64,000 bases of DNA from an uncultured bacterium (GTDB taxonomy: Bacteria > Cyanobacteriota > Cyanobacteriia > Cyanobacteriales > Microcystaceae): contig CAZUVR010000002.1 in NCBI GenBank assembly GCA_964623815.1, positions 48,576 to 112,575 on the forward strand. The letters run 5' to 3'. The position numbers were made by a program, and so were the translations under genes. The notes beneath the pieces are model-generated. The model saw only the letters and a list, made by a program, of their open reading frames with translations. It was not told where the DNA came from and made no database searches. Positions 2,837 to 54,320 of the stretch are shown one piece after another; position 1 is the first letter of the stretch, and each line of letters starts with the position of its first letter.

Positions 2837-3005
2837 TTATATTGATAGCGTTGTTGGCGATCGTTCTCTTAACTCTCAGTAATTCCGTCTTTTCCGAGCT
2901 GTTTCTATTTTTCCCTGTAGATTTATATCAATTGTGGGAATTTTTTCAGAGGTATATATGGCTAGGGATTATATTTCTGGTGGTTATCTGGATCATAGGC
3001 GAGGA

Positions 3006-4891: not shown

Positions 4892-4939
4892 CCGATCGTA
4901 ATTTGGGCATATTAAAAGAGAGACTCAATAAAAGCGATT

Positions 4940-7405: not shown

Positions 7406-7446
7406 CCTTTCCCGGTATCTTGAAAAAAGCGACAAGTTAAAATTCA

Positions 7447-8271: not shown

Positions 8272-8285
8272 GAAGTCCCAGAAGG

Positions 8286-22800: not shown

Positions 22801-25090
22801 TTCCGGAGGGTTCTTGTATCGGGGGGAACGCGCCATCAGGATCACCAGCCATTTGGGCTAGATTGCTGAGAACCTGTCTCCAGGGATCTAAAATCTGATC
22901 GACTAAAGATTCAAAGCCATCCTGGGTGGTTACTTCCGTAGGAGTGGAGGGATTAGTAATATTATCCATAAATCTAAACTCCCAGCCATTAGTCCCCAAG
23001 CCGTTGAAAAAGTCGATATTGGGTACACCTCCAGGAAAATCGGTGCTGGTTACGTCGTTCAGCGGGCTAAAGGTGATCGAGTTAGTCAGAGTCGTCGGAT
23101 TAGCGTTATGAACTGTAGAAGCCAGAATCACGGACGGGAAATCTGGCCCGTAGTTGGGAGTGGCCGTATCTACCTCCCAGTGATATACCAAGGTTGCCTG
23201 TACCGCTGGTATATTATCCCGTAAACTCTTCCTCTGGCGATCGAGATTGGCGATGTTGCTATTGATGGGATATAAAGGTTCACCGACAGAGATCGGGAAA
23301 GCTGGTCTGGCGGTAGAATAAGATCCCAGCCAGCCATTATCGTTACCAAGTTCCAAGCGTTGACCCACGATGATACGCAATCCCTCGGCCCTGGCCCGTC
23401 TTTCCCAATAACCGTCTAATCCCGCCCAAGAATCCTCATCGGGTTGGTTATCTCCAGGGTTATATCCGCTTGGCGGGTCTTCTTGCACCAGTGCGTCTGT
23501 CGTGGCTGGTATCAATTGACCGAAAGAACTGGCTGAGGCGACGGAATACACGCTGTTATACACAGGTTTGGGGCCCCAACGATTATCGGCTCGATAGGTA
23601 TCGTCTACGTAGGGGCGGGGGATATTTTTGTCTAACATCCTCACCGACAATTTATTAGTATTGCCATAGCTCGCTGCCCAGTTGGGATCTCTAAAACTGG
23701 CATTAGTAGAATCGGTACTGGAACGCGAGCGGGATATGTCCTGAGTGAACAGGGCGATCGGATCTAAACTAAATTCATACGGGCTACCTGTTTGTGCTGA
23801 ATCGATTACGGAGTCGGTATTCACGCTCAAGGTCAGAGGAGCGCTCGGAGTATTACCCGGGCCTGGAAATAAGGTTATGTTAGATGTGCCGGCGAAATTA
23901 TCGGGAGTGGGGTTAGCGTTGATCACTTGCCCCTGAAAAGTCACCTGGCCGCTTAAGTTCTGGTTTTGAGCTAGGGTGATTTCCGAACTGTCTTGAGTGT
24001 ATAAACAGGAACTCGGCGAACTGATCAGGAAAATATTGATACTATTGCCCCCGGCAGTTTGACCCCACATGATATTACCGTCGGTGTGCATCGCTCCATT
24101 CCATCGGAAGGTAGGGCCTGGATAGGCTTCTAAGTCATAACGGAACCATACCCCCCATTTATTACCCCGATCGAGCTGTCGATCCTGTTGGAACTCCAAC
24201 GCCGTCACGCTGCGGTTATCTGTGCGGCGGTTGATAACTACTGCGTTGACTTGAAAGTTTTTCCGCACCGTTGCGGTGTTGATCGGTTGCCAACCCGCCC
24301 CTAAACTAGCCGCTGATTGCTGAATCGTGTTACAAACGCTATTGCTGGTACTGATAATACTTAAAGGCCCGGTGCGGGTAACTAAATTGTTAGATTTCTG
24401 CGTGTCCGTACTATTTAAGGTTATTTGGTTCCCCTGCGCGTCTGTGGCCGAGTTCTTAATTATTAGAGAATAGGCGATCGCTTCCGTTACTCCGTCTCCG
24501 TCTATATCAGCGGTGTACGCCCAGGCGTTATCTACCACGTTGTCGCCCGTAATATCTATTCTTGTTTCCCCTGGTAAGGTGTAGGGATCTGCGTAGGCCC
24601 CAGCATCCTGATAGGGTTGGGGCCAACCCACCGGAGGAGATTGTCGGTTGAGGATGAATTGTTCTATCCTCGAATCGTTCGGTACACCGCTCGGGAAACG
24701 ATAATCCCGTTTGAAGAAAAATTCTATTTTGGTTTTCGCCCTCTCTATCGCCGGGTTAGCGTTATTGCTCGTTAATTGTATCTGGCGGTTTCCCGATGCC
24801 TGTTGGGTTTGTTGGGAAGTTCTGAGGAGGATCGAACCTACCACCAAACTGAACACTAACAGTACCATCATAATCGTCGGGATCACAAAACCGCCTGCTT
24901 TAGCCTGTCTGGCTCTTGTCCTCTTCCATCGCGGCAGCACCTCATAATAACTAATTTCAGGGATTTTAGTCCTTTTCTGAATCCCGAAACCTCTGAATAG
25001 TTTTTTTATGGGTTTGAATAGGCGATTGTTGGCATTTCTGACAATATTCCTCAGATGCAGAACGAGTTTTTTGAACGAGCGAATTAACAT
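19814..25090 (-). CDS. very large secreted/surface protein (HpsA-like), first gene of a pseudopilin operon
   Basis: 1758-aa ORF with a basic N-terminus and one hydrophobic segment (GGFVIPTIMMVLLVFSLVVGSILL). The rest is extremely Ser/Thr/Asn/Gly/Pro-rich. It sits directly upstream of three prepilin-like genes on the same strand. Confidence 0.7.
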   Translation of the reverse strand: MLIRSFKKLVLHLRNIVRNANNRLFKPIKKLFRGFGIQKRTKIPEISYYEVLPRWKRTRARQAKAGGFVIPTIMMVLLVFSLVVGSILLRTSQQTQQASGNRQIQLTSNNANPAIERAKTKIEFFFKRDYRFPSGVPNDSRIEQFILNRQSPPVGWPQPYQDAGAYADPYTLPGETRIDITGDNVVDNAWAYTADIDGDGVTEAIAYSLIIKNSATDAQGNQITLNSTDTQKSNNLVTRTGPLSIISTSNSVCNTIQQSAASLGAGWQPINTATVRKNFQVNAVVINRRTDNRSVTALEFQQDRQLDRGNKWGVWFRYDLEAYPGPTFRWNGAMHTDGNIMWGQTAGGNSINIFLISSPSSCLYTQDSSEITLAQNQNLSGQVTFQGQVINANPTPDNFAGTSNITLFPGPGNTPSAPLTLSVNTDSVIDSAQTGSPYEFSLDPIALFTQDISRSRSSTDSTNASFRDPNWAASYGNTNKLSVRMLDKNIPRPYVDDTYRADNRWGPKPVYNSVYSVASASSFGQLIPATTDALVQEDPPSGYNPGDNQPDEDSWAGLDGYWERRARAEGLRIIVGQRLELGNDNGWLGSYSTARPAFPISVGEPLYPINSNIANLDRQRKSLRDNIPAVQATLVYHWEVDTATPNYGPDFPSVILASTVHNANPTTLTNSITFSPLNDVTSTDFPGGVPNIDFFNGLGTNGWEFRFMDNITNPSTPTEVTTQDGFESLVDQILDPWRQVLSNLAQMAGDPDGAFPPIQEPSGTIVHPYPLLTMWGNFSNLRRALGGLGNSSSSGEYYNLSIADRTTIQTAAANIGLLAYTVKNAQDVYNAAVADTATLAGGGAGIQALGEELWRLMDGVQNSSNPEIATIPTSNYTRNTMSGSVSNNTAVYTPAAPSSTISTTTISGYVPFSFPNRTPTTQTAANFYAQFTPEQYIQAIQNDTTLTNAAQKARLVQRAQMIALLIQIERDRLYGFKTDLWPSIQIRNASNGNFLKTPTNGQYAGQSATTGNRTNVSSAPITWSYNGTQRGQITAGELSSVATFITTCDPLMFSNGISSWPADPNPTNFTATATVPVPQSALNPAVALSVALCTDKPKYPTLYYLFPKYNHFQTRLIVISDGSNSPFNNFGTVPVSDYRRLPWLLTPESNVKIANNTDSRYSLLGNAANFVTFSEANSSIYAQPIINDSSVASRPVVAEEYLNPTPPAINVVGVNPLAGNYIFDNDPLTNTSFDVNNGIVYRTVFIDDGIENRTENPFELLAFQPRPRSQWRLPTSSSDTGSGSRIIDNGTSVYLALQDKAFYDGRQLMQVRTMDIDLNLLRSNRAPIAGNSSSDFWLPNSGVVYAFREDAVREDAIIRPSAQTYNNCNEDSEISSANCRMNTNPAAPQDPPVNSSTGISTKPVDYYPDPERKPFGFRLKNGSDVSRPNPLQSGMSFISDNPIYIQGNLNLHQDSGGNRLEEFTQLLTNNWSNFNNRTTLSTSFANPAFDRWRAVEILGDALTVLSPNFCDGTALDGIQNTDNTGTGVGACPSGRNSSYRNSTLTSSTIASTWEWRRENTLTNALGVDTTSPIMIDRNAVIRGRNTTATPLPNFSAFTTYRALGDAKVRNGAAETRMNAIFINALIPSRRFQSYGGFHNFPRFIEDWNGDNLFISGAFVQLNFTTYATAPFDHEAWEPGQNPAAGENLPYYSAPNRLWGYDVALQYIPPGPIAKRFISVGTPRNEFYKQLQADDPYIRQLRCARVAGQRLDTNATDCP

Positions 25091-29566: not shown

Positions 29567-29652
29567 GGGGGTGTGGCGGAATGGTAGACGCTGCGGACTT
29601 AAAATCCGTTGGGCCTTATAAGCCCGTAAGAGTTCAAGTCTCTTCACCCCCA
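29567..29652 (+). tRNA. tRNA-Leu (anticodon UAA), intronless
   Basis: The cloverleaf was folded by hand. The acceptor is GGGGGTG/CACCCCC with discriminator A. The anticodon loop cuUAAaa is flanked by the gcgga/tccgt stem. A long variable arm (tgggccttataagcccg) marks a type II tRNA. The T-loop is TTCAAGT. CCA is not encoded. Confidence 0.9.
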
Positions 29653-39351: not shown

Positions 39352-39614
39352 AAGTTTTCAAAACCGATCGATATTTTTAGTGTACCCATCTATAATTGAT
39401 CGTTGACTTAATTACAAAACTGATTATTTAACCCGGCGGCGAATCAATTCGCCGCTGGGCCGAATACGTAGTTTTTGGTTTGCGGATTTAGTCTGAATAG
39501 TTCTGTATATACTTTCGGAGAAAGTTTCAATAATCAGTGTCTTTATGTGATTTTAGATTGTGAAATGGGAATATTAAAGCCAAGTAGATTTTATAGGCTC
39601 AATTTTCCCGTATC

Positions 39615-41822
39615 ATGCTATCTAAAAATCGCAAATATTCGCAGGAATTGTTACCTACGCTCCTCCCGACGCTCGGAGTACCCATCATAACTTTACTGGT
39701 AAGTTCTGGTAATTTACCGATCGCTATCGTCGCCTGGATAGCTTCTATAGCAGCTACGGTTATAGCTGACAATCTTAAAGATAAAAATTTAGGTAATCTA
39801 GTCAGGGAGTTACAAACAAAGTCGGAAATATTGCAAGATAAACTGAAGAATTTTCAAAGGCAAGAGGTCTTATCTTCGGAGTTAGCGCAGTTAACAGTTA
39901 AAGTTGAGAGCTTAAAATCGGATGAAGCAGAACTAAACCAGAAGTTAACTGATAAAACTAAGTTATTAAATGAAACTAGCGGTAATTTAACTCACTTACA
40001 GGCACAATATACGAAGTTAACAGAGACAGTTAATTTACTAGAAGATAAGGAGAGCGAATTAAAGCGGCGCATCGAGGAAATTAACCGCAAGAATCCCGAT
40101 TTAGCCACAAAAGAGCGACTTTATCGGGATGTGGAAGAGTTAAAACAGAGTAAAGCCAGCCTAGAAGCGCAACTGAAGGTGTTAGAGCCGAAAGTCGAGA
40201 GTTTAGAGAAACTTCAATCGGAGTTAATCGGGGTTGAGGGGCAGTTAACGGCTAAGAGGGCGCAGTTAGAAGAATTGCAGGTTAAGGTGAGCGATTACGA
40301 GAAGAAGGCGACGGAGTTGGAATTATTCCGCAGTACCTACGATGCCATTGTAATCGATCGCACCGAGCAGGAAAATCGAATCAAAACCCTACGCCCGGAA
40401 GTAGAAGGCTTAGAGTTACAAAAACAGCAGATACTACAGGCGATTAGGGAAAGTCAAATCGATTATCTAGCGGCCGAAAGAAATAGGGAAGAAATTCGCC
40501 GACTCGCCGTAGAGTTACGCAACAAACAGGAGGAGGTAGCTAAAGCCGAGAGGGAAATTAATCAATTAACTGGGGTTAGAGAAGCCGAAGAAAGGGAAAA
40601 ATCTAGACTCGAAACCGAGGTGAGAAATTTACAAAGACGGCTACGGGAATTGAAACAGGAAATTGACACCGAAGAACAAAGCGCCGATAAAGCCCTACAA
40701 TCTTTATCGTCGCCCCTATGGAATAATCTACCGCAACAGCAGAAAACCCTCAGCGAAACAGAATTTCTTAACGGCTTCCGCAGTTATCTACAGTCTCAAG
40801 GGTTAAGCTTTCCCGAGAGAATTATCCGCGCTTTCCACACTTCATTAAAAGTGCAGGATATTTCTGCCCTAGTCATACTAGCTGGGATTAGTGGCACTGG
40901 TAAAAGTGAACTACCTCAGAGATACGCCGACTATGCGGGGGCGCAAAAGTTAACCTTAGCGGTGCAACCCCGCTGGGATTCACCCCAAGATTTACAGGGA
41001 TTCTATAACTATATAGAGAAGAAGTATAAACCCACAGATTTAATGCGGGGATTGTACCAATATCAGCATGATAACAAGATGAAAGATAGGCTCGTCCTAG
41101 TGTTGTTAGACGAAATGAATCTAGCGCGGGTTGAATATTACTTTAGCGACTTCCTCTCGAAACTAGAAACTAGAAGGGCGCAGACAACTTATCTAGATTT
41201 AGATGTAGGTAGTTTGCCTTTACCAGAAAATCGCAGGCGATTGGCGATACCAGCACAGTTTCTCTTTGTGGGTACTATGAATGAAGATGAGACTACTCAA
41301 TCATTATCGGATAAAGTTCTCGATCGTGCCAACGTCCTCACCTTCGGTAAGCCCTCCGCTTTAAAACTGCGGGAAGAATTCACACCCGGTAATCCCTTCT
41401 CGGATGATAAAGGTTATGTTTCCTACACCTCGTTTCGCGGGTGGTTACAAACACCTCAACCGAATTCGGATTTAGTCGGGAAGATACGGAGCTATCTCGA
41501 CCAAACTAACGCCATCATGGAGAGAATCGGCCACCCCTTCGCCCACCGCGTCTATCAAGCTATCACAGCTTATGTGGTTAACTATCCCGAGATTTATAAA
41601 GAAGAAGTATTTAAGCAGGCTTTAGCCGATCAATTCGGACAAAAGTTATTACCTAAATTACGAGGCTTGATGCTCGACGGTAGTTGTAGCGAGGAATTAA
41701 AGAAATTAGAGACCATAATAAAAGATTTGGGTGATCAATCATTAATCAGCGCATTTGAAAACGCCCAAAAAGGCAGATTTGGACAGTTTCAATGGCGTGG
41801 TTTAGTTTACGGGGAGGAATAA
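39615..41822 (+). CDS. membrane-anchored, coiled-coil McrB-like AAA+ (AAA_5) NTPase
   Basis: 735 aa. The N-terminal TM helix is LGVPIITLLVSSGNLPIAIVAWIASIAATVIA. About 330 aa of heptad-rich coiled coil follow. The C-terminal module has Walker A ILAGISGTGKSEL, an McrB-type Walker B and sensor LVLVLLDEMNLARVEYYFSDFLSKLE, and FLFVGTMNEDETTQSLSDKVLDRANVLTF, which corresponds to the McrB 'GTMN..D' motif. Confidence 0.75.
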   Translation: MLSKNRKYSQELLPTLLPTLGVPIITLLVSSGNLPIAIVAWIASIAATVIADNLKDKNLGNLVRELQTKSEILQDKLKNFQRQEVLSSELAQLTVKVESLKSDEAELNQKLTDKTKLLNETSGNLTHLQAQYTKLTETVNLLEDKESELKRRIEEINRKNPDLATKERLYRDVEELKQSKASLEAQLKVLEPKVESLEKLQSELIGVEGQLTAKRAQLEELQVKVSDYEKKATELELFRSTYDAIVIDRTEQENRIKTLRPEVEGLELQKQQILQAIRESQIDYLAAERNREEIRRLAVELRNKQEEVAKAEREINQLTGVREAEEREKSRLETEVRNLQRRLRELKQEIDTEEQSADKALQSLSSPLWNNLPQQQKTLSETEFLNGFRSYLQSQGLSFPERIIRAFHTSLKVQDISALVILAGISGTGKSELPQRYADYAGAQKLTLAVQPRWDSPQDLQGFYNYIEKKYKPTDLMRGLYQYQHDNKMKDRLVLVLLDEMNLARVEYYFSDFLSKLETRRAQTTYLDLDVGSLPLPENRRRLAIPAQFLFVGTMNEDETTQSLSDKVLDRANVLTFGKPSALKLREEFTPGNPFSDDKGYVSYTSFRGWLQTPQPNSDLVGKIRSYLDQTNAIMERIGHPFAHRVYQAITAYVVNYPEIYKEEVFKQALADQFGQKLLPKLRGLMLDGSCSEELKKLETIIKDLGDQSLISAFENAQKGRFGQFQWRGLVYGEE

Positions 41823-41823
41823 A

Positions 41824-43368
41824 TTGCGCTACTATCACAATCTCTTCGCCTATCTCAACGGTAAAGTTGCCTCAGAGGGGAAAGTTTTAGAGGGCAAAAA
41901 TCGGCCCGTTTTAGAAGTTGAGGGAAGCATTTCCCATCACCCCGATTTAATCAATCGAGGCGGGGGAGTCTACGAGATAGGTTTTCCCTACCTGACTCCG
42001 GAAGACTGGCAACACCATCACCAACAGTTACAACAGGAGATTATTTTCTCCCTCGATAACGCCCATCACAGTCTATCGGTTACGGATGAAGTTATGGATA
42101 GCGGGGCCATTGAAGATGAGGAAGAATTACAAACATGGCAGAGAGAAGGGCGACAACATCTTTTAGATGATTCCGTAGCTTTGCTATTGCAAAATTTTAA
42201 CGAGTTGTTGAAAAGGGGCAGGAAGGAAGAGGGAATTTATCTCTATGAGTTGCTTTCCTATCTGAAGAATTTCAGTATCGCCGAGGCAAGCTTACCCCTG
42301 ATACTGAGTTTAGAGAGACGCTATGAATTAGCGGTGAAGTTACGGCAGATAACGCCGAAGTTACGGCATCAACTGCGACGGCAGGCGGAATCTATACCCA
42401 TAGGGCGCATTCAGGAGATGGATAGTTACTGTCTGCGCGACTATACCCGTCGCCCAGGAAATACGCCCGAGGAAAAAGCCGGCTCGCGGGGGGAATTGAT
42501 GGGCATACAACGCTATCAAGATTACAACACCGTGGAGAATAAATTTCTTGTTTACTTCGCGGCTAAATTACATCTAGAGGGTTTTCGCTATTTAGAGGCT
42601 GGTAATCACAGTTACACCGATAGCGTCAAGAAATTCCTACAGACTATCGATGTGTTTCGGGGGGATTGGATAGTCAGGAGTATCAACAGCAGAAATTTTC
42701 AATTCACCCGGCCTAATTACGTCCTACTCCAAAATCCTATCTATAGTAGTTTCTATCGGGCCTATCTAGATTATGTGGCTGGGCGCTCGGAAAAACAAGG
42801 CGTGTGGAGTGGGCGTAATCGTTTACTGGGAAACGTGGTTTATCTCTCTCTCCTGGCTGCCATCTTAAATTTCAACGGTGTTACCCACCCCGTAGACGTA
42901 TATATACCAATTAAGTCGTCACCGGATTACGGTGATTATCTGCCGAGAGATAATCCAGTGAAGACTCGGGTAACTATATTTCTGCGGCGCTGGGTTTACG
43001 AAATCGAGGTTAGCAAATCTTCCGATTACCGGGAGGGTGATTATCTTTTAAATATCGAAAGACAGGATTCCCATTCTCTCGCGTTAGAGAGTGAGGAATA
43101 CAAGTTACCGATTTGGGTGTTTTGGTATGGGCCTTCAGAGGAGGTTATAGCCTCGGCGCTTACTTATATGGAGGCGCGGAAGGATATTTACCGACTCGGC
43201 TTAATCTTCTCCCTCGGCGCGGGCGAAGGGGAAGTTAATCCTATATCGCCCTGTCTGTGGTGGTGTGAGATGCCTCTGCCGAATGGGGAGAGGGGCTTTC
43301 TCGATGGGGTTAATTTCTTCTCTGTCAAGGTGATTAAAAATTTGCTTGAGTTTCTCTATGGGGGTTGA
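41824..43368 (+). CDS. hypothetical protein, second gene of the McrB-like operon (possible McrC-like partner)
   Basis: 514 aa starting 2 nt after the ATPase stop (TTG start). No clear motif. A candidate PD-(D/E)xK-like D...ExK near the C-terminus (IERQD...SEEYK) is speculative. Confidence 0.5.
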   Translation: MRYYHNLFAYLNGKVASEGKVLEGKNRPVLEVEGSISHHPDLINRGGGVYEIGFPYLTPEDWQHHHQQLQQEIIFSLDNAHHSLSVTDEVMDSGAIEDEEELQTWQREGRQHLLDDSVALLLQNFNELLKRGRKEEGIYLYELLSYLKNFSIAEASLPLILSLERRYELAVKLRQITPKLRHQLRRQAESIPIGRIQEMDSYCLRDYTRRPGNTPEEKAGSRGELMGIQRYQDYNTVENKFLVYFAAKLHLEGFRYLEAGNHSYTDSVKKFLQTIDVFRGDWIVRSINSRNFQFTRPNYVLLQNPIYSSFYRAYLDYVAGRSEKQGVWSGRNRLLGNVVYLSLLAAILNFNGVTHPVDVYIPIKSSPDYGDYLPRDNPVKTRVTIFLRRWVYEIEVSKSSDYREGDYLLNIERQDSHSLALESEEYKLPIWVFWYGPSEEVIASALTYMEARKDIYRLGLIFSLGAGEGEVNPISPCLWWCEMPLPNGERGFLDGVNFFSVKVIKNLLEFLYGG

Positions 43369-44824
43369 AATGTTTTTAGAAGATATGGGGCAATCTTTAC
43401 CCCTTAATCCGACTCCGCCTTTACAGTTACTGTGGAAAACTTGGAGTGAGGGGAGTGTATTTCTAGAAACTCCTTCGCCGGGGCAACTCAAAACTATTAT
43501 TCCCTCCCTGCCCCTGAGTCACTATCAAGAGACGGCCTTAAAGTTATGTCTCCATAGCCCGCTGATGGTAATTGAGGGGGTGCCGGGTAGCGGGAAAACT
43601 CGTCTCGGGAAAGTCTTGTGTGAAGGTTTGCGGCAACAGCATAAAAAAGTTTTGCTATTGAGTCACCATGAAGCTACTCTATCAGCTTACAAAATTCGAT
43701 CGCGCGGTGTGCCGGAGTCATCGCCCTTCCCCCGTATCGACATGGATTTTCTACCTCCCCACCTACTGCCGGATTATCTATTAAGGGCTTTACGGAAGGG
43801 GGGAAAGTTAGAGAAGTGGGTGGCAATCCTCCGCGATGGTAGCCAGGAAATCGATTCCCTGTTAGCTTCCGAATTCCCTGACATTCCTAAAGCGAGATTA
43901 AATTTACTAAAACTGCGGCTTCAGAATTCATTACCCCTACTGGAAAAACAATTAGCCCTACAACAGCAATCGGCGCGGTTATCGGATGAGGCTTTAGCGT
44001 CTCTGTTATCCGAGTGCGGGGCGTTACCTATCTCGACAACGGTAGCCCAATTTTTTCAACCGGCAAATAAAGAAGCCCAGAAAGCTACTTTTGATTGCAT
44101 CATCGTGGAGGAGTCGGAATATCTAGAGTGGCCCGAATTGGCTTCGCTGGCGACTATGACTGATAAGCTAATCCTCTTAGGTGACTTAAACATCGAGCGC
44201 GTTTATCGGCAGAGGAAAGATTTTTCAGAGTTTGCCCCTTTTGAGTGGTTGAGTCAATATTTATGCCCCGCCTATCGCTATCGACTACCGCAGCAGTTTC
44301 GCCTACATTTTAGTATCGCTCGGCCGATTATCGGGAGTCTTTACAGGAATACGGTTATCGAGACGGCATACAGACACGATAGCCTCCATCTTCCCGTATT
44401 ATTCCATAGATGGGGGTGGCAGGAGGTGCGATCGCTCCCCGCCGACGATATAAATACTATCGAGGGCCGGCGTTTACTCCAATACCTGACGAGGCTTGAT
44501 GGTATCCCTTCCGACGCGATAGGAGTATTAACCTTTACCACCCGTCAGAAGCAATGGTTACGGGAAAACCTCCCCGCCGGATGGGAAGGGGTTTTTATAG
44601 GTAATATCGAGGATTGGGCGGGGAAAGAGATACCCATACTCCTCATCAGTTGCGTGGGTTATCCCGAAAAGTTGAAGCGGCAGGATTTAAAAATCGCCCT
44701 AACCCGTTGCCGGGATTATCTAATTCTTTTCGGTAACGGTAAACAGTGGCTAAAATTCGTCTCGCCGTTACAATCTCTGCTGACGGCTGAGGAAATACAA
44801 AGAGAGAGAGAGGTGTTGATATGA
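43346..44824 (+). CDS. compact Upf1-like SF1 helicase-family protein (AAA_11/AAA_12)
   Basis: Motif I is EGVPGSGKT. Motif II is degenerate, IIVEESE in place of DEAsQ. Motif III is LILLGD, motif IV-like is YRYRLPQQFR, motif V is GNIEDWAGKEIPILLISCV (compare TVD.FQG.E.D.IILS.V), and motif VI is LKIALTRCRDYLILFGN. Only 492 aa. The likely ATG at 43370 overlaps the upstream stop (tgaaATG). Confidence 0.7.
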   Translation: MSFSMGVEMFLEDMGQSLPLNPTPPLQLLWKTWSEGSVFLETPSPGQLKTIIPSLPLSHYQETALKLCLHSPLMVIEGVPGSGKTRLGKVLCEGLRQQHKKVLLLSHHEATLSAYKIRSRGVPESSPFPRIDMDFLPPHLLPDYLLRALRKGGKLEKWVAILRDGSQEIDSLLASEFPDIPKARLNLLKLRLQNSLPLLEKQLALQQQSARLSDEALASLLSECGALPISTTVAQFFQPANKEAQKATFDCIIVEESEYLEWPELASLATMTDKLILLGDLNIERVYRQRKDFSEFAPFEWLSQYLCPAYRYRLPQQFRLHFSIARPIIGSLYRNTVIETAYRHDSLHLPVLFHRWGWQEVRSLPADDINTIEGRRLLQYLTRLDGIPSDAIGVLTFTTRQKQWLRENLPAGWEGVFIGNIEDWAGKEIPILLISCVGYPEKLKRQDLKIALTRCRDYLILFGNGKQWLKFVSPLQSLLTAEEIQREREVLI

Positions 44825-46485
44825 AATTCGAGATAACTTTATCGGGGGTTTTCCAACGTCTGCCCGTAGATGATGAAAAGAAGGCGGCGAGTTTAGAAGA
44901 TTGGCTGAGTTCGATACGGGGGGCGGCGCAGGAAGTTAGGGGGGCTAACCTATCCAATCTCTACCGTGATTTCGGTTTGGGTTTTCTCCCGGGCCGTAGC
45001 GTCGAGAAATTATTGAAACAGACGGATAGGGGCGATAACCTGTACTTACTAGATGGGCTTAAGCGTCTTTATCCTCTAGCCCAATATCCTAACCCTGGTT
45101 TCTGCCTCTACGAATATATATTCACCGGGGAAGGTTTTTGCTTGCGCCTCTCTCCCGATGACTCTCAATTACCCGCGTTTACCTCTGGGATTGTCGAGGG
45201 CAGTTACCGCCTCGTCATCGATAACTTCTCTCACCCCGGTATCTCCGTAGAATATTTAAAAAATTGGTATAGACTAATAAAAATATTTTGGGATTATTCA
45301 TCCTCCGTACAGTTAGAGAGGGCGATGATGTTTTCGGGGGGAGAGATATATTATTCGCCGCCCGCTCATCAGGAAATAAAAGTGATTGCTTCCGTCTCCG
45401 AGTTAAGCCCTACCGTACAATCGGCCCTATCTTATTTACGGGGTAACGTTGCCTGGGATGGGTTATCATCCCAGAGTCGGGATTTGATTAAAGAGTATCG
45501 AGAGAGATATTATTTTCCTCCGGTTTCCTTAGAGTTACCACCGAGTTTAGATATGGATACGGGGGAGGCCCAGCATACTTTAATTGTAGGGAAAGGGCAG
45601 AGGGAAAAGATAGAAGCGATCGTATCTTCGGCGGAGAGATTCCTACTGGTATCGAGTCATATTATAGAAGATAGAGCGATCGTAGAATTAATCTGTGATA
45701 AAGCTCTTACCCTCCCTGGCGGTGTCTGGATATTAACCGATACGAGAGACAGACTCATAGATAAAGTAGAATCCTCCCCCGCAGAAACCCGAGTCGATAG
45801 ATACGAACAAACTAACGTCAGGAAGCGAGAGTGTTTGAACTTATTATTGGAAGCCGGAGTATCTATTAGAGGCGGCGCATTCCATCTCAAAACCATCATC
45901 TCCGAAAATGAGGCTTATTTAGGCTCGTGTAATTTGACTCGGGGCAGTTTAGATATTAACGGCGAGTCGGGCTTAATCTGTCGGCATACCCAAACCCATC
46001 AGGGTTTATACCGTTATTTCCTCAAGTGCTGGCAACACCTCGCTCGACACGAAATCTGCCCGACTCCCGGCGGATTACTACGGCGAGATTTACCCCGCGC
46101 TGCCCCCATAGCCTTCGGTAGCGAAACCCTTCTCACCCCCGCTCAATACAAGTCGGATTTAAAAAAATCTCTCATAGAAGGTAATCAACCGGTAACTATA
46201 TATACTCGCGGCTTGAGTATGGATGAGGAATTAGAATCGTTACTGCGATTCCGCCGCCCGAGGATATATATGGATGTGGAGGGATACAAAGAAGAAAAAA
46301 CCTTCCCCGTTTATTATCGCCCGAAACTTCACGCCAAGATTACCCTCATCGGTGACGACATCGCCTATATAGGAGGCGTTAACTTTCAATTCGACCGCGA
46401 CAGTTTGAAGTTAATCGATTTGATGTACAAAACCACCGACACATCAGAAATCCGGCAAATTCAGCAAAACCTACCAAACCTGTAA
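44821..46485 (+). CDS. phospholipase-D family (HKD-motif) nuclease-like protein
   Basis: 554 aa with two divergent HKD motifs, FHLKTIISENEAYLGSCNLT and LHAKITLIGDDIAYIGGVNF (H.K, then acidic residue, then G[SG].N). Its start overlaps the helicase stop in an ATGA. Confidence 0.65.
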   Translation: MKFEITLSGVFQRLPVDDEKKAASLEDWLSSIRGAAQEVRGANLSNLYRDFGLGFLPGRSVEKLLKQTDRGDNLYLLDGLKRLYPLAQYPNPGFCLYEYIFTGEGFCLRLSPDDSQLPAFTSGIVEGSYRLVIDNFSHPGISVEYLKNWYRLIKIFWDYSSSVQLERAMMFSGGEIYYSPPAHQEIKVIASVSELSPTVQSALSYLRGNVAWDGLSSQSRDLIKEYRERYYFPPVSLELPPSLDMDTGEAQHTLIVGKGQREKIEAIVSSAERFLLVSSHIIEDRAIVELICDKALTLPGGVWILTDTRDRLIDKVESSPAETRVDRYEQTNVRKRECLNLLLEAGVSIRGGAFHLKTIISENEAYLGSCNLTRGSLDINGESGLICRHTQTHQGLYRYFLKCWQHLARHEICPTPGGLLRRDLPRAAPIAFGSETLLTPAQYKSDLKKSLIEGNQPVTIYTRGLSMDEELESLLRFRRPRIYMDVEGYKEEKTFPVYYRPKLHAKITLIGDDIAYIGGVNFQFDRDSLKLIDLMYKTTDTSEIRQIQQNLPNL

Positions 46486-46489
46486 TCCT

Positions 46490-48805
46490 ATGACATACCT
46501 TTATCATCTCGACTCCTATATCGATTTTTATGCCGATACCGCGATATACAACCAGGAAAACCTCAGCCCGTCTGCCCAATCCTATAAAAATTTTCTCACA
46601 GGTAAGGGGCAATCTGGATATAGATGGGATACGGGGCTATCGGAAGAATTATCCATCGCCGATAACGGGCTGAAAAGATTAGGGATAGAGATAGGGCAAG
46701 ATGGAAGTAATCGGCGTTTATACGTTATCCCGGATAATATCAATCTGCTGGCGTTAAGAAACCTTATCGGCATCGGCGACACTTATATATATAAGACTGC
46801 TTATTATTACTGGAATAATCTCAGGCAAATACTCAAGTTTGCCGATTTAAACAAACCCGTAACTTTTATCGATTTGAATAGTCTCGGCGGCGATTGTGTA
46901 TCTTCGATTAATTTCGCGCGTCATCAAAGTTGTGAGTATCCTATTCCTATCCTCGATAACCGTAATAAAGAAACAGAAAATCACAATTTCTCGGCGCGGG
47001 AGATTTATAATAACATCCTGGAAGAGTTAGCCAAAGAAATCCTCAAGCCTTATCATTCCAAATTGCAGAGTTATGAAACTTGCCAGCAACATCTAGTTAC
47101 CGGGTGGAAGAAGCGAAAATTATTACAATCGTTGAAATTAGATAGCCCATCGATAGTTATTCCCTGCGAAATCCTGCAAGGCGAGAAAGTTTATTACAAG
47201 GCTTTGCCCTTAGCGAAAGAGAGAATAGAAAAAACTATACTCAATCATATTAAACCAGCTTTAGAGGAATTGCGATCGCTCTCCTCAAACCCGGTGGTTA
47301 TCAATCCCTATGAGTGTTTACATCTCTCACCTCGGGAAAATATAACCGTTTTACCCTTTAGATGTCTCAATTTCCCGCAGGTTTGGCAATCGAGGCGAGA
47401 AAAATACTTTCCCTTATTCGGACAGTATTTAGAACAAATAGAATTTGAGGTTAAAGATGAAAATAAGCAATCTTTATGGCTCAAGCTTTTCTCAGAAGAT
47501 GAGCAAGAGAATATTTTTTATGAAGGAGATGGACGGGAAAAAACATTTATAGGTCAGATTAAAGAAAAAGGGCAAAATTATTTTAAGCTAAAATCTAAAA
47601 TATCACGGTTGCCTATAAAAATTAACGGTAAATCTTACAAGATAAATGGAGAGGAACAAGTATATAAGATAAGCCATACCAACGAAATAAAAGAAAGTGA
47701 ATCTATAAATATCCGTATAGAATTTATAATTAATGTTGGCTCAACACCTAAATTAAAAGCAACTAATTGTAGTGACAATTTAGAAATTCAATCAGAACTA
47801 GTCACTATACCTAAGCTGACATTTATTCCCTTAGAGCGTTTAAAAGAAGCGAGGGATAAAAAATTATCTTCTGAACAAGTTGAGAAAATAGAATCTGTAA
47901 TTAGCTTAGTGGGCGAGTTGGCAAGCAGATCTAGAATTTCCAATTTAAGCATTCAACGAGATGACAAAATAAGAGAAATATATACTATTATCAAACCTAT
48001 ATATGATAAATTGAGAAAAACTAACAAAAAAGAATCAGATATTTTATCAAATCTTAATAACAAGTGTTATCCTTTACTTGAAGATTTATTAAATAATATT
48101 TATCTTCAAGATATTGTTAATTTAATTAGAGATTATATGAGCATCACAACTATTGATATTTCCACCGATCTCAGAAAGAAAATATCTGACCATATGAATA
48201 TACTTTTCATTTTTATAGGCAAACTATATCAATTTTCTAAAGTTTTGCCTTTAGATTATTTTCATGAAACTAGCAATATAAACAGTGGTATCAAGATATA
48301 CAAGAGAGAATATTATTATTTTTTAGCTAGATCTAGCTACACGGAGGAGCGACAAATAAAGTATTTTAAACTATTCAACATGAAAGACTGGACAGGGAAA
48401 TTTTATTATTATAATAAACACTACTTATGGGGTTATGGACGTGTTTTACTTTGGTATTTTAACTATAATTACGATAATATTAAAAATTCTATATCGTATT
48501 ATCAGCATTTTCAAGATTTATGTAGTTATTTAATAAGGCATCAATCAAGCTTAGAAAAAGAGAACAAAACCAATGCTTTTCTTTGTTTAATATATTTATT
48601 AAATTTTAGAGAAAAAGATTTAGGATTTTGCACTTTAAATACTAAAGAATATAGATTGGGGCAAGAAGTGATTAATAGATATACAACAGAAAAAATTACT
48701 TTGAGAGCGGTATCTGAAAAAAAAGCTCTCAATCAATATTTTCAAGAACTTTTAGAGGGAACGATGAGCGAGGCAGAGATCGGAGGTTTATTAGAATTGG
48801 ACTAA
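46490..48805 (+). CDS. hypothetical large protein; 3' half markedly AT-rich
   Basis: 771 aa starting 5 nt after the PLD gene stop. No recognisable motif. The C-terminal ~450 aa are K/N/I/Y-rich and coincide with a drop in GC (~47.4-48.8 kb). Confidence 0.55.
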   Translation: MTYLYHLDSYIDFYADTAIYNQENLSPSAQSYKNFLTGKGQSGYRWDTGLSEELSIADNGLKRLGIEIGQDGSNRRLYVIPDNINLLALRNLIGIGDTYIYKTAYYYWNNLRQILKFADLNKPVTFIDLNSLGGDCVSSINFARHQSCEYPIPILDNRNKETENHNFSAREIYNNILEELAKEILKPYHSKLQSYETCQQHLVTGWKKRKLLQSLKLDSPSIVIPCEILQGEKVYYKALPLAKERIEKTILNHIKPALEELRSLSSNPVVINPYECLHLSPRENITVLPFRCLNFPQVWQSRREKYFPLFGQYLEQIEFEVKDENKQSLWLKLFSEDEQENIFYEGDGREKTFIGQIKEKGQNYFKLKSKISRLPIKINGKSYKINGEEQVYKISHTNEIKESESINIRIEFIINVGSTPKLKATNCSDNLEIQSELVTIPKLTFIPLERLKEARDKKLSSEQVEKIESVISLVGELASRSRISNLSIQRDDKIREIYTIIKPIYDKLRKTNKKESDILSNLNNKCYPLLEDLLNNIYLQDIVNLIRDYMSITTIDISTDLRKKISDHMNILFIFIGKLYQFSKVLPLDYFHETSNINSGIKIYKREYYYFLARSSYTEERQIKYFKLFNMKDWTGKFYYYNKHYLWGYGRVLLWYFNYNYDNIKNSISYYQHFQDLCSYLIRHQSSLEKENKTNAFLCLIYLLNFREKDLGFCTLNTKEYRLGQEVINRYTTEKITLRAVSEKKALNQYFQELLEGTMSEAEIGGLLELD

Positions 48806-48874: not shown

Positions 48875-49519
48875 ATGATGGCTCAAACTTTACTAAAATT
48901 TCCTTCTAGGACAGTCTTAACCGGGGTGCGGTGGCAAACTTATCAAGGACTGCTGAGCGATTTAGCGGAGAATCCTGGTAAAAGACTAACATACGATCAA
49001 GGCATATTAGAGATCATGACTCCACTGCCGGAACACGAAATTAATAAAGGCTTCTTAAGCAGGCTGGTACAGACAGCGACTGAGGTATTGGGGTTAGAAG
49101 TCTTAAGCCTCTGTTCTACAACCTTAAGCCGGGAGGACTTACAGAAAGGGATTGAACCCGATGAGTGTTATTACATTACGAACGAGGCTCTAGTAAGGAA
49201 TAAGACCTATTTTAATTTTAGCGTCGATCCGGCTCCCGACTTAGCGATCGAAGTAGATATTACCAGTAGTTCTCTCAATCGGCTAGGAATTTACGCCGCT
49301 TTAGAAGTCAGTGAATTATGGCGATTCGACTGCGAGAATTTATCGATTTATTGTTTGCAATCTGGAAATTACCGAGAGGGGGAAAAGTCTAGGATTTTAC
49401 CGATTCTTTCCAAAACGATAATTTTGGAGTTTTTAAGAAAAAGGGGCGAAATGGGAGAAAATGCTTTACTTAAAGAGTTCCGTCAACGGTTACAAACTAT
49501 TGACCAGGAAACCAGATAA
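48875..49519 (+). CDS. Uma2-family (DUF820) putative restriction endonuclease-like protein
   Basis: 214 aa with a PD-(D/E)xK-like core in the Uma2 arrangement (LTYDQGILEIMTPLPEHEINKGFL...DLAIEVDITSSSLNRLGIYAALEVSELW). Confidence 0.7.
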   Translation: MMAQTLLKFPSRTVLTGVRWQTYQGLLSDLAENPGKRLTYDQGILEIMTPLPEHEINKGFLSRLVQTATEVLGLEVLSLCSTTLSREDLQKGIEPDECYYITNEALVRNKTYFNFSVDPAPDLAIEVDITSSSLNRLGIYAALEVSELWRFDCENLSIYCLQSGNYREGEKSRILPILSKTIILEFLRKRGEMGENALLKEFRQRLQTIDQETR

Positions 49520-49555: not shown

Positions 49556-50278
49556 CTAGGGAGAATTAGCTTGATTTGTTAATACCCACTTAAGAAATGC
49601 GTCTCCTATTCCTGGTTGTCCGTCTTGATTAACTTTATTTTTATATTCGTTCAAGATTATCCATTGATTATCTATAACTATAGTGCCGTTTATTTGTATT
49701 TCTCTCAAGTATTGTCCAGTGCGTAACTTACACTCACTGGTAACTTGAGGACAATCTCTCCCATTAGCGGCGATTAAAACATTAGTATCAATGATGATAG
49801 CCAATTCTCCTCTACGGCCTACATCCTGTGGTTTTTCTCCTGCCCAAGAGTAAATTCTTTTTGGATACTCTTTCAGAGGGCCGAGATAATAGAGTTTTTC
49901 AAAGGCTTGCTCATAGGCTAAAGTGAAGAAGGGTAAAAAATCGGCATTTTGAAAGTAATTAACTGGTTGGTTTGGGAATCCATAATGTTTAAGTGGTGGT
50001 GGTAGGGTTAGATATTTATCTGTGCTACTTATAATTTTATAAACCTCTGATTTAAGTTCGTAATTTAATAAATTATATTCTGATTTTTTCTGTTCGCCTG
50101 TATTTAAAACCCGTTGACGATCGCTTGATTCAACAGTCTGTTTTAAAAGCAGAAAGAATTGGATGATGCTAGATTTTCCCGAGCTGTTATTTCCGAAAAA
50201 TCCAGTGATATTGGCGAAGGAGATATTTCCGGTATCTTGCCAAGATTTAAAATTTTTAAATTTGATAGTTTTAAACAT
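49556..50278 (-). pseudogene. truncated AAA (RecF/OLD-like, AAA_15-type) ATPase N-terminal fragment with PIN-like tail; probable gene remnant
   Basis: 240 aa. The N-terminus IKFKNFKSWQD...ITGFFGNNSSGKSSI is the Walker-A region of AAA_15/OLD-type ATPases, but no Walker B or C-terminal domain follows. The tail AIIIDTNVLIAANG resembles a PIN-domain N-terminal strand. Too short for either full domain. Confidence 0.4.
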
Positions 50279-50404
50279 ATTTGAACCACAGAGGACACAC
50301 AGGTGATTATAAAGAGAGGGTGAAAGAGCAGGGATTTTGAACTATGATCCTCCTATAGGCGAGGTGAAGTTACAAATATTATTCCCAGTCTCCCACAAAG
50401 ATTT

Positions 50405-51712
50405 ATGATACCCTCCTCCCTCTGTTACTCGCTCCTGTTACTAAGCGCCCTAATGGCCTTCCTAATCGCCGCGGTGAGCAACTTAAATCTCGGCCTCTTA
50501 GCATTAGCCCTTCTCGACGCGATTATCGTAACCCTCACCATCATTGACATACTAAGGGTGAGAAATCAAACCATAGGAGTTAAACGCTTATCCAACACTC
50601 GCCTCTCAGTAGGTAGAGACAACCCGATGACACTTCAGGTAACAGGTAGTAGATACGAAGCCGAAGTAATTATTAAAGATGGTTATCCCCGAGAATTCCA
50701 CGTCTCGAAAGACGCTTTCTGGATTAAAGTCAAAGCTCACAGTAAATCCTGCCTAACCTATACTATAAAACCCGATCGCAGGGGTCGAGTCACATGGGAT
50801 ACTATTTCTGTCCGCCAGAGAGGGAGATGGGGGTTAGGCTGGTACGCATGGCAAACCCACACCGGCGAAGAAGTGACAATTTACCCGGATTTAATGACCA
50901 TACGCGCTCTATCAATCCGCCTCACCCTAGAAAACACCGGAAGTATGAGACGAGCGCGACGACTCGGCACCGGTACGGAATTCGCCGAGTTAAGGGAATA
51001 CAACCGGGGGGATGACTTACGCTTCATGGATTGGAAGGCTACAGCCAGAAGAAACACCCCCTTTATCAGAGTCTTAGAACCAGATAGGGAACAATCCCTG
51101 ATCATACTCCTAGATAGGGGACGTTTGATGACCTCGCGGGTGCGGGGTTTATTACGCTTCGACTGGGGTTTAAACGCCGCCCTCTGCCTCGCTACCGCCG
51201 CCCTGCATCGCGGTGATAAAGTAGCAGTGGGCGTATTCGATCGAGAGATGACCACATGGATACCCCCTCAGCGCGGTCAATCCCATCTCGGACATCTGAT
51301 CGAGCAACTCTCACCCCTACAACCGGTTTTATTAGAGCCAGATTATGCCTCTGCCGTCTCCTCCCTCGTCAATCACCAATCTCGCCGCGCCCTGGTGGTA
51401 TTGATCACCGATATTGTCGATGCCACCGCCTCCTCGGAATTATTGGGAGCCATGACCCGATTAGCCCCCCGCTATCTCCCCTTTTGCGTCACCCTCCGCG
51501 ATTGTGTAGTGGATACTATCGCTTGCACAGAGAGCGACGAGGCTCGCAAAGCCTATGAAAGAGCCGTCGCTTTAGACCTATTATCCCAACGGGAGAACGT
51601 CTTCGCCCGCCTCAAGTCCAAGGGGGTGTTAGTATTGGACGCTCCCGCCGACGCTATCAGTGAAACCCTAGTCGATCGCTATCTGACCCTGAAAGCTCGC
51701 TCTCTTTTGTGA
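50405..51712 (+). CDS. DUF58 domain protein (vWA-like, MoxR-associated family)
   Basis: The N-terminus has two TM helices. The DUF58 signature FAELREYNRGDDLRFMDWKATARRNTPFIRVLEPDREQSLIILLDRGRLM is present. Confidence 0.8.
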   Translation: MIPSSLCYSLLLLSALMAFLIAAVSNLNLGLLALALLDAIIVTLTIIDILRVRNQTIGVKRLSNTRLSVGRDNPMTLQVTGSRYEAEVIIKDGYPREFHVSKDAFWIKVKAHSKSCLTYTIKPDRRGRVTWDTISVRQRGRWGLGWYAWQTHTGEEVTIYPDLMTIRALSIRLTLENTGSMRRARRLGTGTEFAELREYNRGDDLRFMDWKATARRNTPFIRVLEPDREQSLIILLDRGRLMTSRVRGLLRFDWGLNAALCLATAALHRGDKVAVGVFDREMTTWIPPQRGQSHLGHLIEQLSPLQPVLLEPDYASAVSSLVNHQSRRALVVLITDIVDATASSELLGAMTRLAPRYLPFCVTLRDCVVDTIACTESDEARKAYERAVALDLLSQRENVFARLKSKGVLVLDAPADAISETLVDRYLTLKARSLL

Positions 51713-51713
51713 T

Positions 51714-52742
51714 ATGCTAGAACAAAATAGCCATACCCGTGCCGATAGTTTAAAAGCAGGTCATAATCGTAACCGAATAAAGATGTTACCGCCTCCGGGG
51801 AAAGCACCTTACGGTTATCGCCGGGGTAAAGATAAATACATCATCGATAAAAGTACCGCCCCAGTCGTCAAAGAATTTTTCGAGCATTTTCTTCGTTACG
51901 GTTCCCTACGAGGGGCAGTGAAATTTTTAGAGAAGCGTTTCGGTAAAAAGATAGCCCTGTCAACCGGTAGAAACTGGCTGACGAATCCCGTGTATAGGGG
52001 GGATTTACAGTATAAAACCAGGGATATTATCACCGATACCCACGCGGCGCTAATTTCGCGGGAAACGGCGGCGGCGATCGATCGACTCCTCCGCAGTCAT
52101 CGAAAACTAGCGCCCAAAACCTCCAGCGCTAAACGCAGTCTCGCGGGCTTAGTTTTCTGCACCACCTGTCAATCGCCTTTCACCGTCACCAAGGTCAAAC
52201 CCAAGGGTAAAAAAACCGAATACCTATATATCCGCCCGACTCAATGCCCGCGTAACCCCCATTGTAGAAGCCTCAATTATCAATCCGTACTCGGGAAGGT
52301 TATCGAAGCTATCTGTAAGGAATTACCGCTTACAGTCTCCAAATTAACCCTACCTAATTTAGAAAATGTTAGGAATCAAATAATAGAAGAGATCAGAGAG
52401 AAAGAAGCGATAATTAATCGTCTTCATCAATTGCAAGATGAGGGAATATTAGATGAAGCTAGTAAAGATTTAAGGCAATATAATTTAAAAACCGAGATAG
52501 CCCGATTACAGCTACAATTTAACGGGTTGCCTCCTGGTGATTTGAAAATCATCACTCAATCTGTTTGTTTACCGCGTTTCTGGGAAGATTTATCGGAAGA
52601 AGAGAGACGGTTTTATTTTCGGGAGTTTATCGAGAGAGTAGAGATAGATTATGGAAATAGTGAAAATTATCAATTGAGAATTATTTTTGTTTTCGAGAGT
52701 ATGATTGAACCACAGAGACACAGAGGGCACAGAGGAGATTGA
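51714..52742 (+). pseudogene. large-serine-recombinase remnant (Recombinase domain + zinc ribbon + coiled coil, catalytic resolvase domain absent)
   Basis: GKAPYGYRRGKDKYIIDKSTAPVVKEFFEHFLRYGSLRGAVKFLEKRFG...GRNWLTNPVYRGD matches the 'Recombinase' domain. LAGLVFCTTCQSPF...RPTQCPRNPHC is the Zn-ribbon. No Ser-nucleophile resolvase domain precedes it, because the DUF58 gene ends 2 nt upstream. Confidence 0.55.
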
Positions 52743-52868
52743 CACGGAAAGAAAGTAAAGGAAAAAGGGAGAAAACGAAGAGCTACTTGGAAAGGGTCTT
52801 AAGATGGAAGAGGAAGGATTGAGACAGATGTATACCTCTCCTTTCAAAGTGAGCAAGAGGTAATAATC

Positions 52869-54320
52869 ATGCCTAAAACAGTAGTAATCGATCCCGTGAC
52901 GCGCATCGAAGGCCATGCCAAAATATCCATTTATCTCGACGACGGCGGCAAAGTCGATGATGTGCGCTTTCACGTAGTCGAATATAGAGGTTTTGAAAAA
53001 TTTTGTGAAGGTCGTCCGATGTGGGAGATGGCTGGGATTACCGCCAGAATTTGCGGGATATGCCCAGTGAGTCACCTGCTCTGTGCGGCTAAAACCGGCG
53101 ATAAAATCTTAGCGGTAGCGGTGCCGCCAGCGGGTGAAAAACTCCGTCGCTTGATGAATTTGGGGCAGATAACCCAATCCCACGCTCTGAGTTTCTTCCA
53201 TCTTAGCAGTCCCGATTTCCTTTTAGGTTGGGATAGTGACCCAGCGAAGAGAAACGTCTTCGGCTTGATCGAACACGATGCGGAATTAGCCCGCAGCGGT
53301 ATCCGGTTACGCCAATTCGGACAGAAAATTATCGAGTTATTGGGAGCAAAAAAAATTCACCCGGCTTGGTCAGTACCTGGGGGTGTACGTTCTCCATTAT
53401 CCGATGAAGGGAGACAATGGATTAAAGAGCGTCTACCGGAATCTAAAGATAGTATCCGCAACGCCTTAAATCTCTTTAAAGGGTTGCTAGACGGTTTGAG
53501 TGAAGAAGTAGCCGCCTTCGGAGAATTTCCATCCCTATTTATGGGATTGGTGGGTAAAGATGGCGAGTGGGAACATTACGGCGGACATATTCGTTTTACT
53601 GATAGTCAGGGGAATATAGTAGCCGATAATCTCAGCGAGGATAATTATCGGGATTACATCGGGGAATCAGTGGAAAAATGGTCTTACTTGAAATTCCCTT
53701 ACTATAGACCTTTAGGTTATCCCGATGGAATTTATCGAGTCGGGCCCCTAGCGCGATTGAACGTCTGTAGTCATTTCGGCACACCAGAGGCCGATCGAGA
53801 ATTAGAAGAATACCGTCAACGAGTCGGAGGTGTGGCCACATCTTCTTTCTATTATCACTACGCCCGATTAGTAGAGATTTTAGGGGCGTTAGAGGGGATA
53901 GAAAAGTTAGTAGATGACCCCGATATTATCTCATCTCGAACCCGCGCCGATGCCGGTATTAATAATCTCGAAGGCGTAGGCGTTAGTGAAGCACCTCGGG
54001 GAACCTTATTCCATCACTATAAAGTGGATGAAAATGGTTTAATTGAAAAGGTTAATTTAATCGTCGCCACTGGCAATAATAACCTAGCGATGAATAAAAC
54101 CGTCAAACAGATCGCTCAACATTACATCACTGATTCAGATATTACTGAAGGGATGCTAAACCGAGTCGAGGCGGGGATTAGGGCTTACGACCCATGTTTA
54201 AGCTGTTCCACCCACGCCATAGGACAAATGCCTTTGCATATTCAATTAATTGCTCCGAATGGTGAAGTTATCTCCGAAAAATATAGGGGTACAAATAATT
54301 TGCCACTGACTAAGCTTTAG
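52869..54320 (+). CDS. hoxH: [NiFe] bidirectional hydrogenase large subunit
   Basis: 483 aa. The N-terminal Ni-binding motif is RIEGHAKI...[10 protein letters not shown] and the C-terminal motif is [13 protein letters not shown]. The length and ends are typical of cyanobacterial HoxH. Confidence 0.85.

Follow-up and report, generated by a model that had tools for sequence, protein, structure and literature searches.

A UPF1-like helicase and PLD nuclease gene pair in a Microcystaceae contig is very probably the cnuH-cnuE module of a Type III-C CoCoNuT

We analyzed a stretch of 64,000 nucleotides (hereafter the window) from contig CAZUVR010000002.1 of an uncultured bacterium of the Microcystaceae (assembly GCA_964623815.1), with a focus on two adjacent genes coding for a UPF1-like superfamily 1 (SF1) helicase and a protein with phospholipase D (PLD) domains. 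An initial annotation had proposed that this pair was either a compact, divergent version of the anti-phage system Mokosh or a nuclease accompanied by a non-catalytic helicase scaffold. We find that it very probably represents the cnuH-cnuE module of a coiled-coil nuclease tandem (CoCoNuT) of Type III-C, an McrBC-derived, Type IV-restriction-like defence operon of cyanobacteria. The locus thereby moves from a possible new mini-Mokosh to an already published type of system, defined so far by computation (Bell, Sahakyan, Makarova, Wolf & Koonin, eLife 2024; PMC11090510). Both open reading frames (ORFs; 43346-44824 and 44821-46485) are indeed present and coupled through an ATGA stop/start overlap that can be read in the sequence at 44821-44824. 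The suspicion that they are part of a larger operon was borne out as well: they are genes 3 and 4 of five in an operon spanning 39615-48805 (Table 1), in which consecutive genes are separated by 1, 1, -4, and 4 bases.

In the sections of Bell et al. that deal with Type III-C, CnuB is an McrB-like GTPase with a long coiled coil fused N-terminally, whose NxxD signature is reduced to NxD, with E or D as the usual next residue; CnuC is an McrC homologue with an Ig-like N-terminal domain and a PD-(D/E)xK fold without the catalytic motif; CnuH is a UPF1-like SF1 helicase with a helical insertion past Walker A, whose best HHpred match in the paper's domain table is UPF1 (2WJY); CnuE has a distorted winged helix-turn-helix (wHTH) and two PLD domains; and CnuD, encoded separately, bears Hsp70-like nucleotide- and substrate-binding domains (NBD/SBD) plus HEAT-like repeats. 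According to the same sections the type has no TerY-P and is found 'primarily' in Cyanobacteriota. The operon of the window shares with this description an NxD GTPase with a coiled coil, an McrC homologue that has DUF2357 but no conserved catalytic nuclease motif, a UPF1-like helicase that bears a helical insertion and lacks an OB fold, a two-PLD effector, a separate large fifth gene right behind cnuE, and a cyanobacterial host; no VWA/PP2C/kinase (TerY-P) triad was found in the operon. The domain table of the paper also lists consecutive accessions for III-C CnuE and CnuD, and for CnuH and CnuC, in agreement with the order C-H-E-D seen here. No feature of the locus contradicts Type III-C as described in those sections. 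Three traits go beyond them: a hydrophobic CnuB N-terminus (for which they mention coiled coils only), an E-E Walker B in most CnuH proteins, and a low-GC cnuD. The first and the last of these, together with a sister clade of CnuH with a degraded ATPase site, are minor new details.

The McrBC-like core of the operon is formed by its first two genes. CnuB matches Pfam AAA_5 (2.1e-7) and the PADLOC candidate PDC-M26A (8e-44). When aligned to E. coli McrB with hhalign (E 3.2e-5), its GISGTGKS, LLDEMN, and MNEDETT motifs fall opposite GPPGVGKT, IIDEIN, and MNTADRS, so that the NxxD signature of McrB is shortened in CnuB to NxD followed by Glu. The string GTMNEDETTQ, which contains this signature, is identical in 8/8 CnuB orthologues. 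Searches of the PDB with the GTPase domain, both as a single sequence and as a profile, found no McrB or McrC chain. The protein also has a coiled coil of ~300 aa: residues ~50-385 match the coiled-coil parts of SMC, JetC, LmuB, and Rad50 profiles, and the region is heptad-rich with an E/K/L/Q composition, a call made from profiles and composition.

Ahead of the coiled coil lies a hydrophobic segment (residues 11-51; 39645-39767), and a similar hydrophobic start of ~45 aa is found in 7/8 CnuB orthologues (including those of loci L010, L011, and L015-L018, introduced below), being Gly-rich in most. Kyte-Doolittle maxima over 19 residues reach 1.5-2.1, and there are sub-threshold Pfam matches to CyanoTRADDas_TM (PF20712, E 0.004-0.025) and to glycine-zipper families. 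Judging from these sequence features, the N-terminus of CnuB may be a membrane anchor.

The start of cnuC is one base past the cnuB stop. Its product matches Pfam DUF2357 (PF09823; 9.2e-6, 25.5 bits against a cut-off of 23.3), which is the N-terminal domain of McrC. In 8 loci, the protein encoded at this position shares 40-51% identity with it. An alignment of eight CnuC orthologues contained no invariant D...(D/E)xK catalytic motif, which is consistent with nuclease inactivation, and a single-sequence search of the PDB with CnuC found no McrB or McrC chain. Canonical McrBC from E. coli K-12 has the same arrangement, an AAA+ GTPase with a DUF2357-bearing partner directly behind it, and its Walker A and B motifs align with those of CnuB. 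Yet it differs from our locus in having NxxD instead of NxD, a DNA-reading N-terminal domain where CnuB has a coiled coil, a conserved McrC nuclease motif, and three genes fewer. Canonical McrBC Type IV restriction is thus ruled out by the NxD signature, the hydrophobic and coiled-coil N-terminus, and the lack of a conserved nuclease motif in CnuC.

The third gene had been described as coding for a 492-aa helicase. This is the length of the ORF counted from a TTG at 43346, which is a mechanical ORF start only; in databases, the gene for the identical protein is called from ATG 43358 (488 aa) or ATG 43370 (484 aa). The latter lies one base past the cnuC stop, and residues are numbered from it here. 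Its assignment as a UPF1-like SF1 helicase holds, with Pfam, PDB profile, and Foldseek results in agreement, as does that of its neighbor as a PLD protein. CnuH matches AAA_30 (5.8e-7), AAA_12 (3.4e-6), and AAA_19 (5.7e-6) in Pfam. A profile of 16 CnuH orthologues retrieves human UPF1 as the first match in the PDB (6.9e-11), followed by yeast Nam7, a SETX-like helicase, SMUBP-2, Sen1, and DNA2, and the top Foldseek matches of the AlphaFold2 (AF2) model are UPF1, DNA2, IGHMBP2, and ZNFX1. The model is modest (pLDDT 62.7), good in the first RecA domain and poor in the second. It has only helices between residues ~100 and 220, with no OB fold or beta-barrel, and these make up a helical insertion of ~120 aa between motifs Ia and II. 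The claim that all SF1 motifs are present needs some nuance: Q, I, IV, V, and VI can be recognized clearly, while Ia and III are weak.

Motif II of this helicase, VEESE, had been considered degenerate. The string is indeed there, and in the HMMER alignment IIVEESEY stands opposite ILIDESTQ of UPF1, meaning that the Walker B Asp is replaced by Glu and the catalytic Glu is kept, so that two acidic residues remain. We surveyed motif II in 23 CnuH orthologues (16 close and seven more distant ones). It reads DEAH in Trichormus and Anabaena; EEAQ, EESQ, EEAE, or EESE in Hassallia, L017, L018, the window, and P0002-P0004; EDAQ in Planktothrix; and ESAE in 13 Pleurocapsales-type sequences. Since E-E is common across the family, VEESE represents a normal state for it and not a decay. 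The 16 close orthologues show no variation at the Q-motif Gln, GxGKT, the motif IV Arg, or the first motif VI Arg, all of which the seven distant ones keep too. CnuH from the window further retains two acidic residues in motif II, the motif III Asp (LILLGD), and both motif VI arginines (TRCR), and its nucleotide pocket is, as read from these residues, intact.

A non-catalytic scaffold is therefore not supported for the CnuH in the window, and would fit better the clade in which the motifs read ESAE, GN, and TRAS. Members of this clade (P0005-P0016 and L003-L006) have, in addition to ESAE, an Asn for the motif III Asp and a Ser for the second motif VI Arg, with Walker A, the Q motif, and the remaining arginines invariant. 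From its residues, this version looks like a helicase that binds ATP but hydrolyzes it poorly.

CnuE matches PLDc_2 (9.6e-17, residues 265-404) and PLDc (1.4e-6, residues 503-522) in Pfam, and its structural model (pLDDT 79.4) is a two-lobed PLD. Its HKD motifs had been called divergent, a view that did not survive the alignment of 49 CnuE orthologues. In the first lobe (HLKxxxxE...GSxN), H355, K357, E362, G368, S369, and N371 are invariant, and in the second (HAKxT...GGxN) so are H504, K506, G518, G519, and N521. Both His/Lys pairs and the Asn of each lobe are hence conserved throughout, and the only residue replaced or shifted is the non-catalytic Asp. Identity to PLD3/PLD4, which are two-lobed, and to the single-lobe Nuc, NucT, and Zucchini is 12-18%, and CnuE differs from all of them in an extra N-terminal region of ~250 aa (a proposed wHTH plus helices). 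The best PADLOC matches of CnuE are DrmC and DpdK, both weak. DISARM and Dpd systems were discarded, as these weak PLD matches (DrmC, 8.6e-6; DpdK) are the only ones, and no DrmA/B, methylase, or Dpd genes are found in the operon or its flanks.

The fifth gene begins 4 bases past the cnuE stop (gap 46486-46489) and is the equivalent of cnuD by position and size. Its product aligns over its full length with the protein at the same position in locus L003 (35% identity), and the gene is present in 7/8 full loci. No Pfam match was obtained in a scan of 35 members of the family, nor any PDB match at E<=10 with its profile; hhalign against an E. coli K-12 DnaK/HscA alignment gave a probability of 0.09, and a word-indexed homologue search returned the protein itself only. 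The gene has a GC content of 0.33 (0.31 at third codon positions, GC3), versus 0.43-0.48 (GC3 0.44-0.50) for cnuB, cnuC, cnuH, and cnuE. In six other loci the drop in GC is merely 0.03-0.06. A strong drop in the window and a small one elsewhere suggests that cnuD was recently replaced here and that the operon is compositionally chimeric. No close donor of the low-GC cnuD was found.

The five-gene order, with homologues at every position, is conserved in a metagenome-assembled genome (MAG) from ENA (L003), Planktothrix agardhii (L010), Trichormus sp. NMC-1 (L011), Hassallia byssoidea VB512170 (L015), Anabaena sp. UHCC 0451 (L016), another MAG (L017), and partial contigs of Pleurocapsa, Myxosarcina, Waterburya, and one Chroococcales MAG. 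Identity of CnuB is 48-66% in full-context loci (and up to 71% on one partial contig), and that of proteins at the same position is 40-52% for CnuC, 34-48% for CnuH, 35-40% for CnuE, and 30-37% for CnuD. This conservation bears on the possibility that we are looking at two independent neighbors, an McrBC-like pair (genes 1-2) and a helicase-nuclease pair (genes 3-4), brought together only by the clustering of defence genes. McrBC pairs do function on their own, and Bell et al. report helicase and effector pairs of the cnuHE kind outside CoCoNuTs too (PMC11090510). However, the order B-C-H-E is constant, with junctions of 1 base or overlapping, in loci that span at least three cyanobacterial orders and have unrelated flanking genes; genes 1-2 by themselves lack an evident effector, because CnuC lacks a conserved nuclease motif; and the helicase/PLD pair, which lies within a conserved four- or five-gene operon in 8/8 full loci, was not found alone at any locus examined. 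We thus regard a chance association of two systems as very improbable.

The distribution of the operon is patchy, rare, and cyanobacterial. In a search of 5.8 billion sequences, the close helicase family amounts to 16 clusters and the PLD protein to 56; the close CnuH family is found at 6 loci only among 185,579 species-representative genomes, and gene 5 has only 83 cluster representatives among 1.84 billion. No relative of CnuE was found in viral contigs. The relatives that bear a name are all cyanobacterial (Pleurocapsa, Myxosarcina, Waterburya, Planktothrix, Trichormus, Anabaena, Hassallia, Tolypothrix, and Halothece). The insertion site is different in every genome, as expected of a mobile accessory cassette. 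Such a pattern does not sit well with a housekeeping machine for RNA surveillance or ribosome rescue, an explanation that could be entertained given that the helicase has its nearest solved relatives in UPF1, SMUBP-2, Sen1, and SETX, and that the neighbors in the window are ordinary genes, such as znuABC and hoxH. Together with the toxin-antitoxin genes that adjoin some loci and the descent of the core from McrBC, the rarity and the variable location make a housekeeping role highly implausible.

The defining components of Mokosh are a COG1112/UPF1-like helicase and a PLD nuclease, the helicase gene of type I also encoding a Ser/Thr kinase (10.1101/2022.05.11.491447), and neither the ATP-binding site nor the PLD active site is dispensable for its defence (Millman et al. 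2022, 10.1101/2022.05.11.491447). The likeness with our pair is real in that a helicase delivering or licensing a PLD nuclease is a general logic common to both, as the initial annotation had noted. MkoA is the best PADLOC match of the helicase, though a weak one, in the window (2.9e-8) and in two orthologues (1.3e-11 and 4.8e-6). This match covers the helicase core only (residues 65-437, aligned to profile positions 625-1039) and is no stronger than that to human UPF1, so it reflects common membership of a helicase clade only. PADLOC MkoB profiles gave no match with CnuE from the window at E<=0.1, nor with the Trichormus and Planktothrix orthologues at E<=0.01. Mokosh is, moreover, a system of one or two genes (MkoA/MkoB in type I, MkoC in type II), with an MkoA of >1,000 aa that includes the kinase domain, while here the pair is subordinate to an McrBC-like core. 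That the pair is a compact type I Mokosh lying by chance in a larger operon is the least probable of the alternatives, and we reject it as membership, keeping the resemblance in logic: the PLD protein has no MkoB match in 3/3 loci, no Ser/Thr kinase family of Pfam is found in the helicase protein, its 484-492 aa are less than half of the 1112-1607 positions of MkoA profiles, and in the 8 full loci the pair always follows McrB and McrC homologues, with gene 5 behind it in 7/8.

Two points weigh against the assignment to Type III-C CoCoNuTs. One is a locus on a JGI contig (L018; 3300076002, 1614-8650) in which cnuB-C-H-E occur without gene 5. The other is that Type III-C itself is known from computation, RNA targeting, complex formation, and a defence role being inferences. 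As a separate observation on L018, genes of the ParE/RelB, TacA, PIN, and MazEF toxin-antitoxin families lie directly downstream of its cnuE.

If the locus is a Type III-C CoCoNuT, a mechanism can be proposed from the literature on McrBC, UPF1, and PLD proteins and from the CoCoNuT paper. CnuB, an NxD-type AAA+ GTPase borne by a long coiled coil, with its hydrophobic N-terminus as a probable anchor, would assemble with CnuC, whose DUF2357 domain would stimulate the GTPase as McrC does with McrB. CnuC having lost the canonical nuclease motif, cleavage would be delegated to another protein. CnuH, as a 5'-3' SF1 helicase whose nucleotide pocket is intact and whose Walker B reads E-E, would load on single-stranded RNA or DNA and feed or license CnuE, the two HKD lobes of which would combine into one PLD active site, of the PLD3/PLD4/Nuc type. 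The fifth protein (reported as Hsp70-like with HEAT repeats for III-C) could be a sensor or adaptor that binds nucleic acids or ribosomes, and CnuD and the coiled coils would account for target sensing and assembly. The outcome would be the breakdown of invading RNA or single-stranded DNA or, failing that, of host molecules, leading to restriction or abortive infection. The CnuH-CnuE step rests on domain and conservation data, and the other steps are inferred.

A further idea, which we hold to be unlikely but worth stating, is that III-C CoCoNuTs are tethered to the membrane and that their helicase is a nucleotide-gated adaptor rather than a processive motor. It stems from the conserved, Gly-rich hydrophobic hairpin of CnuB (7/8), which resembles, below threshold, the cyanobacterial TRADD-N-associated two-transmembrane domain and glycine zippers; from the Glu that nearly all of the CnuH family has in place of the Walker B Asp; and from the clade of CnuH in which the catalytic Glu, the motif III Asp, and one of the motif VI arginines are gone as well, with Walker A, the Q motif, and the other arginines still invariant. 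The apparent recent replacement of cnuD in the window from a low-GC donor hints, in turn, that the sensor module might be swappable.

The only CoCoNuT with reported protection that we found in the literature is of Type II, the seven-gene Obs locus of Pseudomonas aeruginosa, which protects against PP7 and LeviOr01, both of them RNA phages, and the DNA phage MPK7 (10.64898/2026.04.06.716636). It has in common with our operon the CnuB/CnuC core, the UPF1-like CnuH, and a CnuE effector downstream. In contrast, the effector of Type II is a HEPN RNase instead of a PLD protein, its CnuH has SmpB-like, RelE-like, and OB domains, and it includes a TerY-P triad and no separate CnuD. The locus described here is a reasonable experimental target for the coupling of an McrBC-like GTPase core to a UPF1-like helicase and a PLD nuclease. 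It raises the questions of whether RNA is the target and of what the fifth protein senses, and the survey of catalytic residues provides concrete mutants and a natural contrast between DEAH, E-E, and E-S Walker B orthologues. For genome scans, the practical lesson is to consider the operon partners of a helicase next to a PLD gene before calling the pair Mokosh.

Table 1. Genes and sequence motifs of the five-gene operon, in coordinates of the window.
Feature	Coordinates	Strand	Description
Putative promoter 5' of cnuB	39368..39396	+	TCGATA-17-TATAAT; consensus scan, 10/12 matches; weak
cnuB (gene 1)	39615..41822	+	735-aa McrB-like AAA+ GTPase
cnuB Walker A	40884-40907	+	GISGTGKS
cnuB Walker B	41106-41126	+	LDEMN
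cnuB NxD signature	41271-41291	+	GTMNEDE
cnuC (gene 2)	41824..43368	+	514-aa McrC homologue, DUF2357 N-terminal domain
cnuH (gene 3)	43370..44824	+	484-aa UPF1-like SF1 helicase
cnuH Walker A	43577-43600	+	GVPGSGKT
cnuH motif II	44105-44119	+	VEESE
cnuH motif III	44168-44191	+	LILLGD
cnuH motif VI	44693-44719	+	IALTRCRDY
cnuE (gene 4)	44821..46485	+	554 aa; N-terminal region of ~250 aa, then two PLD lobes
cnuE HKD-1	45883-45933	+	HLKTIISE...GSCN
cnuE HKD-2	46330-46383	+	HAKITLIGDD...GGVN
cnuD positional equivalent (gene 5)	46490..48805	+	771 aa, no family assigned

Promoter and terminator scans gave no more sites in the region of the operon than expected from shuffled sequence, and a scan of the window for Rfam families and tRNAs gave no match inside or adjoining it. 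The sole RNA gene detected in the window, a tRNA-Leu (anticodon TAA) at 29567-29652, is far from the operon. Downstream, 69 bases past cnuD, lies a gene for a putative endonuclease of the Uma2 family (48875-49519; PADLOC PDC-S17, 3e-44), which is probably outside the CoCoNuT system because it is not at that position in other loci. It is followed by a 240-aa ORF on the reverse strand (49556-50278) with no more than the N-terminal portion of an AAA_15/AAA_21 ATPase, a DUF58/VWA gene (50405-51712), a 342-aa 'Recombinase + Zn_ribbon_recom' ORF without the resolvase catalytic domain (51714-52742) and, just downstream of the latter, hoxH (52869-54320); these four genes (49556-54320) may be what is left of a mobile or excision element. 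Elsewhere in the window, the reverse strand carries a very large ORF of 1758 aa (19814-25090).

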